From Rhodospirillales bacterium (GTDB lineage: Bacteria; Pseudomonadota; Alphaproteobacteria; Rhodospirillales; SHVQ01): a stretch of 64,000 nucleotides of DNA. Positions 48,001 through 51,000 of the stretch are shown here, piece after piece. Location: the NCBI GenBank assembly GCA_009694195.1, contig SHVQ01000004.1:957-64956 (forward strand), in the 5' to 3' direction. The position numbers are program-made. Position 1 is the first letter of the stretch. Each line of letters opens with the position of its first letter.

Positions 48001-51000
48001 GCGCAAGCCGGTCGATCAGGAAGAGGACGAGCCCTTCGTTGATCCGCATCGCGGCGTGGCCGAGGTTGAACTGGTTTCGCGCGAACGCGGCGAGTTGCAT
48101 CGTATCCTTGACCAGGCACGGACCCGCCGTGAACCCGGCCGAGGGCATGTCCTTGGCGCGCGGATAGCCGTGCGTCATGCCGCTGTGGATGCGGCGGAAG
48201 TCGGCCCCCGCCGACGTCGCGATCATGAAGAACTCGTTGGCGATCGCGAAGTGAAGATAGCGGTAGCAGTTGTTGAAGAGCTTGGCGAACTCGGCCTCGA
48301 GAGGTGTCATCTCGAAGGTTTGCGGAGCCACGCGGCGAAACAGCTTCCGCACCTCCGCCAGCGCTGCGGGCGTGGTGCCGCTGATGATCTGAGGCAATTC
48401 CGCAAGCTCGCGGATGCCGGACCCCTGCACCACCCGCTCCGGACAGTATGCGATCTTGGGACGCTTTCCGGCACGTTGAAGATAGCGCTCGAGCCACGTG
48501 GTGGTGCCGGGATACACCGTGGAGCGAAGCACCAGGAGATGGTCGTCCGTCAGGTACGGCAGGAGACCGTCCATGCACTCCCGGATCACCTTGTGCTCGG
48601 GATTGAGGAATTCATCCACCGGCGTTCCGATCGTGACGACGAGGGCGCCGCTCGGTTGCACATCGGCCGGATCGGACGTGAAGGCCAAGCGGTCCTTGGC
48701 GAGGGCGTCCTTGAGATACCGCTCGCCGTCTTCTTCCGGGAACGGAAGAACACCCTCAGCGATCTTGGCGAGGGCCTTCCGATCCGTGTCGTAAATGAGC
48801 ACCCGTTTTCCGCTGTGCGCGAACGACAGCGAAAACGGAAGGCCGACGTGCCCGGCGCCCCCGACCACGCACATGTCGATCCGCTTGCCCGCGGCGCGGC
48901 GCGGTTTCCTCGGGGATGCCTTCGATTTACGTTTCGGCATGGGCGCGATCGCGTCAGAACCTTTGGAGCGAGAGGCGGGGCGTTTCAGGCCGTGCCGATA
49001 CTACCGGATGGATTCGGTGTCAACCGGCTGAAAGAGAATCGATGGTGTACGTGACGCTCGACGATTAGGCCGAACGTAGCCCGGATCATGCAAAAAAGCG
49101 CCCCTCACTGGGGCGCTTTTTTTTGTCCCCGGCCCCGGCTTCGCGATAGACTCCCGCGCCATGAGTCTTTCCGTTCAAGTTCTTGCCTTTGCCGCTGTTT
49201 TGGCCGCCTCGCTCCTGGGCACCGGCATCGTCCTCAAGGTATTGAACAGACACGCTATTTTAGACCGGCCGAATGAGCGGAGCGCGCATTCCCGGCCGGT
49301 TCCCCGCGGCGGCGGAATCGCCGTCATTCTCGTCATCATCGTTGCCTGGTTGGCGATCGCGCTCGCCGGACACGAGAGCCGTCCCGACGCCCTTTGGCCC
49401 GTCGCCATCCTGCTGGGCGCGACGCTTGTGCTCTCCGCCCTTTCATGGGCCGACGACATCCAGGGTCTTTCTCCCGTCATCAGGCTGCTCGGCCAGGCGG
49501 TCGCGGTCGGCGTTGTGCTCGCCCTCGCGCCCGCCGAAGGACCCTATTTCCAAGGGATTTTCCCGCCCGCAATCGATCGCATCGCAGCCGGTCTCGTCTG
49601 GATCTGGTTCATCAATCTCTTCAACTTCATGGATGGGATCGACGGCATTTCCGGTGTTGAGGCCGCCAGCCTCGGTGTCGGCGTGGCCGCCGTGGCGGCG
49701 GTGTCCGGTCTCGGCGCTCCGGTTTCTCTCTACGGCCTCACGGGCGCCGCCGCCGCGCTCGGGTTCCTCCGGTGGAACTGGCATCCCGCAAAGATTTTCC
49801 TCGGCGACGTCGGAAGCACGGGCCTCGGTTTCGTGCTCGGCTGGCTCCTGCTCACGCTTGCCGCCGCCGGGGCCTGGGCGGCCGCCTTGATCCTGCCGCT
49901 CTATTATCTCGCCGACGCGACGATCACGCTGCTCAAGCGCCTCGCCCGGCGCGAGCGCGTCTGGCAGGCCCACAGCCAGCATTTCTATCAAAAGGCCGTC
50001 CGCTCCGGAAAAACCCATGCCGAGGTCGCGCTGTCGGTTCTCCTCGCGGACGCGGTCCTCGTCGGCCTCGCCGTCGCGGCGGCGAACGGCTACGTTTGGT
50101 CGAGCCTTGCCGGAGCGTGCGCCGTGGTCGGCGGGCTGCTCCTTTACTTCAACGCGCTCCCCGCTGCCGAACCGACGGCGCGATGAACATTCTCTTTCTC
50201 ACCGAGAATTTTCCGCCGGAGACGAATGCGGCGGCGACCCGCGTCTACGAGCGCGCCTGCTATTGGGTCCGCTGGGGACACAAGGTGACCGTTATCACCT
50301 GCGCGCCGAATTTCCCGGAGGGGCGCCTCTTTCCCGGCTACGCCAACCGCTGGCGGCACGTGGACGACATGTCGGGCATTCGTGTCGTCCGCGTGAAGAC
50401 CTTCATCGCGCCGAACCGCGGCGTTATTTTGCGCACCCTCGATTTCCTGAGCTTCTTCGCGAGCGGCTCGTTGGCGGGACTTGCCGAAGAGAGGCCCGAC
50501 GTCGTGATCGCCACGTCCCCGCAATTCTTCGCCGCGGTCGCGGGCCACGCGGTCGGTGCGTTCCGCCGGGTTCCCTTCGTGTTCGAGCTCGGCGACCTGT
50601 GGCCGGCTTCGATCGCAGCGGTCGGGGCGGTGCGCGAGAACCGGGCGCTGCGCCTGCTTGAGAAACTGGAGCTTTATCTCTATCGGCGGTCCGAGGCGGT
50701 CGTTGCGCTCACGCATCATTTCAAGGAGAACCTGACAGCCCGCGGCATCGACCCCGGCAAGATCGCCGTGGTGATGAACGGTGTCGATTCGTGGCGCTAC
50801 GGTCCCCGCCCGCGCGACGCCGTGCTGGCGAAGGAATGGGGACTGGAGGGCCGTTTTGTCGTCGGATATGTCGGCACCCACGGGATGGCCCACGGCCTCA
50901 CCAACGTTCTCGATGCGGCGGAGCGGCTGCAGGCCGAGCCCGGTCTCCGGTTTCTCTTCGTCGGCGCCGGCGCCGAGCGCGCGGCCTTGATGGAAAACGC

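Follow-up and report, generated by a model that had tools for sequence, protein, structure and literature searches.

A terminator-type hairpin at the edge of a predicted wbpL promoter in a Rhodospirillales glycan locus

Terminators that overlap the promoter of the next gene, with sequences used for both purposes, have been reported to be widespread (Fletcher, Forrest, Grainger and colleagues; bioRxiv 10.64898/2026.08.19.745784). In these promoter-coupled terminators, the termination site is located at most 35 base pairs (bp) upstream of a start on the same strand. The preferred geometry places termination about 10 bp ahead of the start, with the T-tract beside the -10 element and the stem serving as -35 element, and termination is reported to become more efficient when RNA polymerase occupies the promoter (bioRxiv 10.64898/2026.08.19.745784). 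Here, an element with another geometry is described from a stretch of 64,000 nucleotides (nt) of a Rhodospirillales bacterium (contig SHVQ01000004.1, positions 957 to 64,956, assembly GCA_009694195.1), in the following called the window. The element consists of the hairpin GCGCCCC-TCACT-GGGGCGC and eight T (T8; 49098-49124, + strand). It is found in the 220-nt intergenic region between a divergent dehydrogenase gene and wbpL, the gene of an initiating transferase. It is probably a + strand intrinsic terminator at the upstream edge of the wbpL operon's own promoter, where it would insulate the operon. Predicted termination (about 49123-49125) and the predicted wbpL start (about 49159-49161) are 35-37 bp apart, at the edge of the 35-bp definition. 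The preferred spacing of about 10 bp is not found here: The T-tract ends 22 nt ahead of the -10 hexamer.

In intrinsic terminators, a G+C-rich stem of 5-14 bp encloses a loop of 3-8 nt and is directly followed on its 3' side by a U-rich tail. The hairpin at 49097-49117 falls within these ranges, and T8 supplies the tail. The folding energy of the hairpin is -22.2 kcal/mol (z = -5.45), a value that was equalled by 0 of 200 shuffles. T8 is the longest homopolymer run of the window, and 36 nt lie between it and the ATG of wbpL (49161). A strict scan accepted only perfect stems of 7 bp or more that contain five or more G-C pairs, enclose a loop of 3-8 nt and are followed within 2 nt by T6 or a longer T run. 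On both strands of the 64 kb it returned exactly one site, the hairpin upstream of wbpL. With the same settings, 200 dinucleotide shuffles yielded a mean of 0.035 sites, and any site at all occurred in only four of them. This bears out an earlier note on this DNA, in which the hairpin had been called the sole textbook rho-independent terminator of the window. The note had also placed the hairpin, T8, an A6 tract, a mini-open reading frame (mini-ORF, MVYVTLDD) and a GGGGCG copy correctly. A general promoter and terminator scan missed the hairpin, because the extension of the stem by A6:T6 pairing uses up the tail. Judged by its features, 49097-49124 is a genuine terminator-type hairpin, from which termination activity is to be expected.

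As a separate observation, one strict intrinsic terminator in 64 kb of about 65% G+C DNA suggests that canonical terminators composed of hairpin and U-tract are apparently little used in this lineage.

Upstream of wbpL, 500 nt were scanned in 80 genome loci and 200 nt in 80 metagenome loci. The best WbpL matches were 59% identical in the genome scan and 58% identical in the metagenome scan, with no close relative among them. Two closer relatives, L161 and L162, were reached only through a protein search with the dehydrogenase and contig look-ups. About 11 diverged Rhodospirillales-type relatives, with WbpL proteins 49-63% identical, share a module upstream of wbpL (L001, L011, L080, L088, L127, L097, L086, L110, L100, L006 and L162; L110 is cut at the contig end). 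The conservation of the hairpin in related genomes, which the earlier note had proposed to check, is hence found. In this module, a hairpin that varies in sequence is followed by T7-8 and an invariant G, then after 21-22 nt by a box (GATAcACT, TATAAACT or GATAGACT) and after another 5-10 nt by a conserved ATG, which opens the conserved N-terminus of WbpL. In nine loci (L001, L006, L011, L080, L086, L088, L097, L100 and L127), a + strand hairpin with T7-8 was detected upstream of wbpL, and the scored 9-nt tail window ends 23-47 nt ahead of the start codon. T7-8 and the following G are invariant in every relative (alignment columns T128-T134 and G135), and so are columns A156, T157, A158, A160 and T162 of the box. 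When the window was compared with L011 and L080 by blastn, homology extended from the 3' stem arm (49110) to 49163 with 76-78% identity. This segment is the best match of the two queries anywhere in the window.

The hairpin itself is conserved in structure and varies in sequence. Its outer arms are mostly GCGCC/GGCGC among the relatives, and both inner stem and loop differ in sequence and length. The hairpins of ten relatives could be folded in full and reached -13.5 to -27.7 kcal/mol, each followed by U7-8 (the L086 stretch is cut). The A-tract 5' of the hairpin comprises six A in the window, three in L161 (GAGCAAA at this position), two in L162 and three to four in most other relatives. Only the + strand tail is kept among the relatives, and the A-tract is not. 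Therefore bidirectional action, which the earlier note had considered possible in view of A6, is not a conserved property of the element. Some terminator palindromes reportedly also serve as binding sites of transcription factors, for instance of LexA at yobI/ruvA (bioRxiv 10.64898/2026.08.19.745784). Here, the GC-rich palindrome is located immediately upstream of the predicted -35 element, and its outer arms recur in many relatives, as might be expected of a DNA site for a dimeric transcription factor that controls the promoters of wbpL and/or the dehydrogenase gene. Yet, the distance between the outer arms ranges from 4 to about 20 nt among the relatives and the inner stems differ, which fits an RNA hairpin and not a protein site of fixed spacing. 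Such a factor site is extremely improbable.

A different hairpin, GGCCCGGCACCTTGCCGGGCC followed by TTTGTCTTT, is present in L055, L070 and L137. It is situated after a GT1 gene and 40-42 nt ahead of a wbpL homologue that starts with TTG, and seems to be a separate instance of a terminator near a wbpL start.

Downstream of the stem, the module reads as a sigma-70-type promoter, TTGnnn-N17/18-TAnAnT. The distance between the end of the T-tract and the TAnAnT hexamer is always 21-22 nt in the relatives, so the last two T and the invariant G fall at the position of a -35 TTG, with a spacer of 17-18 nt. In the window, these three nucleotides (49123-49125) would form the -35 TTG and be followed by an 18-nt spacer and the -10 hexamer TAGACT. 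The combination TTGTCC-18-TAGACT matches at 8 of 12 positions and is the best promoter-like match on either strand of 48800-49260; a general promoter scan with a threshold of 9/12 reported no promoter. In all module members, TAnAnT is found 5-10 nt ahead of the ATG, and the geometry of hexamer and ATG is kept across at least 14 loci. The same box precedes the ATG in four loci devoid of the hairpin (L018, L082, L084 and L147). In L086, the hairpin has its own T7, and six bases further on a second T8-G is located at the canonical distance from the box. Therefore, T8-G is tied to the promoter geometry. The predicted transcription start of wbpL coincides with the ATG or is at most about 3 nt away from it, which would make the mRNA leaderless or nearly so.

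Since the promoter-like element is located between the T-tract and the start codon, the hairpin is placed upstream of the predicted wbpL promoter and not, as had been assumed in the earlier note, within the wbpL leader. This affects one of the functions considered there, an attenuator or a target of processive antitermination inside the leader, with a promoter upstream of the hairpin and regulated read-through. Polysaccharide operons of enterobacteria use antitermination by RfaH at ops sites. The hairpin precedes the first gene of a polysaccharide operon by 36 nt, and where relatives have a co-directional gene upstream, some transcription might read through into wbpL. Nevertheless, this function is very unlikely for the window. 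No + strand promoter-like site of at least 8/12 is present upstream of the hairpin, the best + strand site being downstream of it, and the conserved block upstream reads as a - strand promoter with TTGACA. GGGGCG at 48977-48982, the proposed competitor for the 5' stem arm, and the mini-ORF do exist in the window, but neither is conserved in L161, where the GGGGCG copy has an altered sequence and the mini-ORF lacks both its ATG and its TAG. No Rfam riboswitch or leader family was matched; Phe_leader reaches 24 bits compared to a threshold of 55 bits and covers the terminator only. The ops motif GGCGGTAG is absent from the region, and its single match in the window, at 61132, corresponds to chance level. 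A tblastn search confined to the window, for which RfaH and NusG of E. coli served as queries, yielded no NusG/RfaH-like gene below E = 0.2.

The genes upstream of the hairpin differ between the loci. In seven relatives (L001, L011, L080, L088, L127, L097 and L006), the hairpin is preceded by a co-directional Gfo/Idh/MocA oxidoreductase gene, whose stop codon is located 20-50 nt upstream of it. In L086 it is located downstream of an epimerase fragment, and in L100 downstream of a heparinase-II/III-like gene. These nine hairpins stand where a transcription unit of their own strand ends, whereas the gene upstream is divergent in the window, L161 and L162. As had been stated before, no co-directional gene precedes the hairpin in the window, which is flanked by the divergent dehydrogenase gene on the left and the WbpL-like gene on the right, and a same-strand 3' end is not found there. 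Since the upstream contexts differ, the hairpin travels with wbpL and not with a particular upstream gene.

The dehydrogenase of the window has no orthologue among the 160 wbpL loci. Its gene is part of a cassette (43211-48940; dehydrogenase, GT2, C-methyltransferase and epimerase) that recurs beside unrelated genes in L163-L167. Neighbours of the cassette in other lineages are a 4HBT thioesterase gene, Epimerase_2 and heparinase genes, or Wzy_C and asparagine synthase genes. By this comparison, the cassette behaves as a shuffled glycan module, and the block from wbpL to capD beside purH appears to be the stable part. If the cassette replaced an ancestral co-directional Gfo/Idh/MocA-type gene, the hairpin of the window might be a non-functional relic of the terminator of that gene, with only T8-G kept as part of the promoter. 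The position of the hairpin after such a gene in seven relatives agrees with this, and the promoter geometry accounts for T8-G. In addition, 49052-49071 shows a weak short match to the stop-codon region of L127 (CGCTCGAC..TAGGCC), with an empirical p of about 0.04 for the best pair, but of about 0.10 (not significant) for the summed alignment score. However, tblastn detected no Gfo/Idh/MocA remnant upstream of the hairpin, and when the 3' ends of the relatives' genes were combined into an nhmmer profile, 48941-49090 gave no match. Furthermore, the window, L161 and L162 all have perfect stems, even with WbpL only 63% identical, whereas the flanking spacer is unalignable or only 62% identical. 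A mere relic is hence quite unlikely.

L161 and L162 allow to follow the hairpin in the orphan context. The L161 dehydrogenase is 88% identical to that of the window, the DNA is 80.7% identical over 5.3 kb, and the divergent arrangement is the same; the contig ends just past T8. Identity to the window is distributed unevenly over the intergenic region (Table 1). In L162, where the dehydrogenase is 71% and WbpL 63% identical, a perfect 8-bp stem (GCGCCCCC-TTTC-GGGGGCGC), T8-G and the box CTTCGCGATAGACT are kept ahead of wbpL. The dehydrogenase promoter and the hairpin of L162 have become separated by mobile-element insertions, which comprise an IS1595 element and a DUF3800 gene. Stem and T8 are perfect in the window, L161 and L162, while the adjacent spacer drifts. 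Therefore, the + strand terminator is preserved without a co-directional upstream gene, and by this pattern constraint acts on the element where it is orphaned.

The central conserved block of the intergenic region is most likely the promoter of the divergent dehydrogenase gene, because the corresponding motifs recur: L161, L162, L165 and L167 likewise have a perfect TTGACA 55-75 nt ahead of the dehydrogenase start, followed at 14-18 nt by a TAnnnT hexamer. In the window, the spacer between TTGACA and TAGTAT is unusually short (14 nt), and TATCGG at 17 nt is an alternative. The hairpin would consequently lie between two back-to-back promoters and adjoin that of wbpL.

A spacing of 14 nt was also observed upstream of wbpL in L011, L080, L127 and L084, where TTGACG (TTGGCG in L080 and L127) is located only 14 nt from TAnAnT, the same short distance as in the dehydrogenase promoter of the window. 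This spacing may reflect an alphaproteobacterial promoter geometry such as the Caulobacter-type consensus, or it may coincide by chance with the TTG-N17 reading.

The A/T symmetry of any TAnnnT -10 hexamer permits divergent initiation, as in bidirectional bacterial promoters. A small non-coding RNA (sRNA) of about 75-115 nt, one of the earlier suggestions, could thus be transcribed rightwards within the intergenic region and end at the hairpin. It might start divergently from the -10 region of the dehydrogenase promoter (about 48997-49003) or from weak sites at about 49009-49046; weak promoter-like matches (7/12) predict starts at about 49046-49053. An orphan terminator within a 220-nt intergenic region and the conservation of the hairpin in this context are in line with such an RNA. 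Several results argue against it and render it unlikely. No Rfam family was found in the whole window at the gathering threshold. At the E-value threshold, the hits in 48700-49400 that overlap the hairpin were below the gathering threshold and covered only the generic terminator stem. A scan for tRNA and transfer-messenger RNA (tmRNA) genes was negative. The would-be body of the sRNA, 49028-49096, is the least conserved part of the region, and homology to distant relatives begins only at the hairpin. The folding of the whole 220-nt region is not unusual (z = -1.37). Moreover, the L162 hairpin persists despite the insertions that separate it from the dehydrogenase promoter, and in most relatives the hairpin follows a protein gene directly. 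What stands of the suggestion is the terminator, at which a short by-product transcript may end.

Accordingly placed between two gene blocks, the proposed terminator would halt rightward transcription ahead of the operon, so that wbpL, the GT1 gene, the epimerase gene and capD would be driven by their own promoter only. In most relatives, the incoming transcription would be read-through from upstream glycan genes. In the window, it would be either pervasive or divergent from the back-to-back dehydrogenase promoter. The element would form the left boundary of the conserved wbpL-GT1-epimerase-capD block beside the variable, shuffled glycan cassette. In the lineage of the window, this cassette now presents a divergent gene, and the terminator therefore looks orphaned. 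Altogether, the interpretation given in the earlier note is supported in part. An insulator at a module boundary, the last of its three options, comes closest to the comparisons made here, with the modification that the insulator is proposed to abut a promoter and that its role is deduced from conserved geometry.

Several points weigh against a promoter-edge insulator. In the window, no defined + strand transcription unit that the insulator could hold off enters the hairpin. Both terminator and promoter are predictions, the promoter of the window matches at no more than 8 of 12 positions, and the same sequence can alternatively be read as TTGACG-N14-TACACT in several relatives. Promoter function alone could account for the conservation of T8-G. 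The identity of the L161 stem could partly reflect a short divergence time, given the overall identity of 80.7%. The module is clade-specific, being present in only about 8% of the sampled wbpL loci. Finally, the absence of a Shine-Dalgarno sequence was dropped as evidence for a leaderless mRNA: Such sequences are rare among the genes of the cluster, and their absence is uninformative, since most of these genes lack one.

A more far-reaching proposal, which we regard as rather doubtful, is that the terminator is under selection although no gene runs into it. It would then be a dedicated, orientation-specific insulator in a leaderless promoter that captures divergent or pervasive transcripts from the dehydrogenase promoter. 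It might release a discrete RNA of about 115 nt, and promoter-bound RNA polymerase would reinforce termination. If this were true, a second geometric class of promoter-coupled terminators would exist, with the T-tract as -35 element and a spacing of about 36 bp. This class would guard initiating transferases that consume undecaprenyl phosphate (Und-P) in GC-rich Alphaproteobacteria.

For the proposed insulator at the promoter edge, the following consequences can be named. An orphan-looking terminator in a divergent intergenic region becomes explicable by comparing related loci, in which a boundary element moves with the downstream promoter and the upstream glycan cassette is swapped. This calls for caution before such hairpins are annotated as attenuators or sRNAs. 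In addition, a leaderless promoter for the operon of an initiating glycosyltransferase is a testable prediction.

Table 1. Features of the dehydrogenase/wbpL intergenic region and its flanking genes, with identity between the window and L161
Feature	Positions	Strand	Identity to L161	Remarks
UDP-glucose/GDP-mannose dehydrogenase family gene, divergent	47693-48940	-		part of the variable glycan cassette
Dehydrogenase 5' untranslated region			69%	
Central conserved block, promoter-like	48990-49027	-	92%	TTGACA 49023-49018, TAGTAT 49003-48998
Spacer	49028-49096		62%, indels	
Poorly conserved spacer	49028-49091			62% identical to L161, with indels; holds the mini-ORF (49042-49068); possible relic of a stop-codon region (CGCTCGAC..TAGGCC), not significant
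A6 tract	49092-49097	+		stem extended by A:U pairs; window-specific
Terminator hairpin	49097-49117	+	90% (stem 100%, loop TCACT vs CACA)	8-bp stem (7 G-C and A:T closing pair), 5-nt loop TCACT
Hairpin 5' arm AGCGCCCC	49097-49104	+		
Hairpin loop TCACT	49105-49109	+		
Hairpin 3' arm GGGGCGCT	49110-49117	+		
T8 tract	49117-49124	+		terminator U-tail, immediately 3' of the stem
T8-G			100%	
Predicted -35 hexamer TTGTCC	49123-49128	+		TT = last two T of the terminator tail; TTG conserved
Conserved box GATAGACT	49145-49152	+		holds the predicted -10 hexamer TAGACT (49147-49152), 8 nt ahead of the ATG
wbpL/wecA-type initiating transferase gene, PF00953	49161-50186	+		first gene of the conserved block wbpL, GT1, epimerase, capD

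To the right of the hairpin, the gene order is wbpL (PF00953), a GT1 glycosyltransferase gene, an epimerase gene, a CapD-like gene and purH. The WbpL protein is also present in metagenome assembly ERZ1305449 (ENA). For the dehydrogenase gene, the gene callers place the start at M23 (48874), which corresponds to 393 amino acids (aa). The homologues comprise 404-423 aa, and both L161 and L162 keep a Lys/Arg-rich N-terminal extension (MPKRKSKASPRKPRR...). Therefore, a start at 48940 (415 aa) is more likely than one at 48874, and 48875-48940 would be coding on the - strand. In L162, positions 1400-4900, between the dehydrogenase promoter and the wbpL hairpin, contain an IS1595-family transposase element, the DUF3800 gene and two small ORFs. 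The terminal inverted repeats of the IS1595 element are 36 nt long and 97% identical (3016-3051 and 4852-4887), and a second, weaker inverted repeat (1450-1476 and 4875-4901) suggests nested insertions. Elsewhere in the window, the AT skew at 39001-41000 and 44001-45000 stands out from the rest by strongly negative values (-0.29 to -0.37). It is probably caused by T-rich codons of membrane proteins encoded on the + strand, for example in the 513-aa ORF at 44095-45636, which has no Pfam match.

Four described systems can be compared with the wbpL element. With canonical intrinsic terminators it shares the G+C-rich perfect stem, the short loop, the tail of eight U, the upstream A-tract and a structure that is kept while the stem sequence varies. 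In the relatives it is located 20-100 nt after a stop codon, as such terminators are. It differs from them in that the window, L161 and L162 have no co-directional gene ending upstream of it, and in that it is the sole motif of this kind in 64 kb. Leaderless mRNAs of Alphaproteobacteria and Actinobacteria have in common with wbpL a -10-like hexamer 5-10 nt upstream of a conserved ATG and no Shine-Dalgarno sequence. In the case of wbpL, however, a leaderless mRNA is deduced from promoter geometry alone, and most genes of the cluster are also without a clear Shine-Dalgarno sequence. JUMPstart/ops and RfaH of enterobacterial polysaccharide operons resemble the wbpL arrangement in that a conserved non-coding element marks the 5' boundary of a glycan cluster beside a variable region. 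Unlike in these operons, neither ops near the element nor a NusG paralogue is found in the window, and the wbpL element would be a terminator ahead of a promoter instead of a site for pausing or recruitment within a long leader.

Promoter-coupled terminators are the fourth system. They differ from the wbpL element in spacing and in the use of the T-tract: At wbpL, this tract would supply the -35 TTG, at a predicted distance of about 35-37 bp in contrast to about 10 bp. In addition, the upstream unit is missing in the window. If the predictions hold, the wbpL element would have in common with them a stretch of DNA that belongs both to the terminator and to the following promoter of its strand, with a T-tract that contributes to the promoter. 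In the relatives, the wbpL element is situated between tandem, functionally related genes. Promoter-bound RNA polymerase would cover the terminator, and the proposed role is the control of read-through. The arrangement is fairly ordinary, of a recently described kind, and opens no new mechanism. If confirmed, it would add an example from a GC-rich, uncultured alphaproteobacterium with a different geometry to the newly described promoter-coupled terminators.

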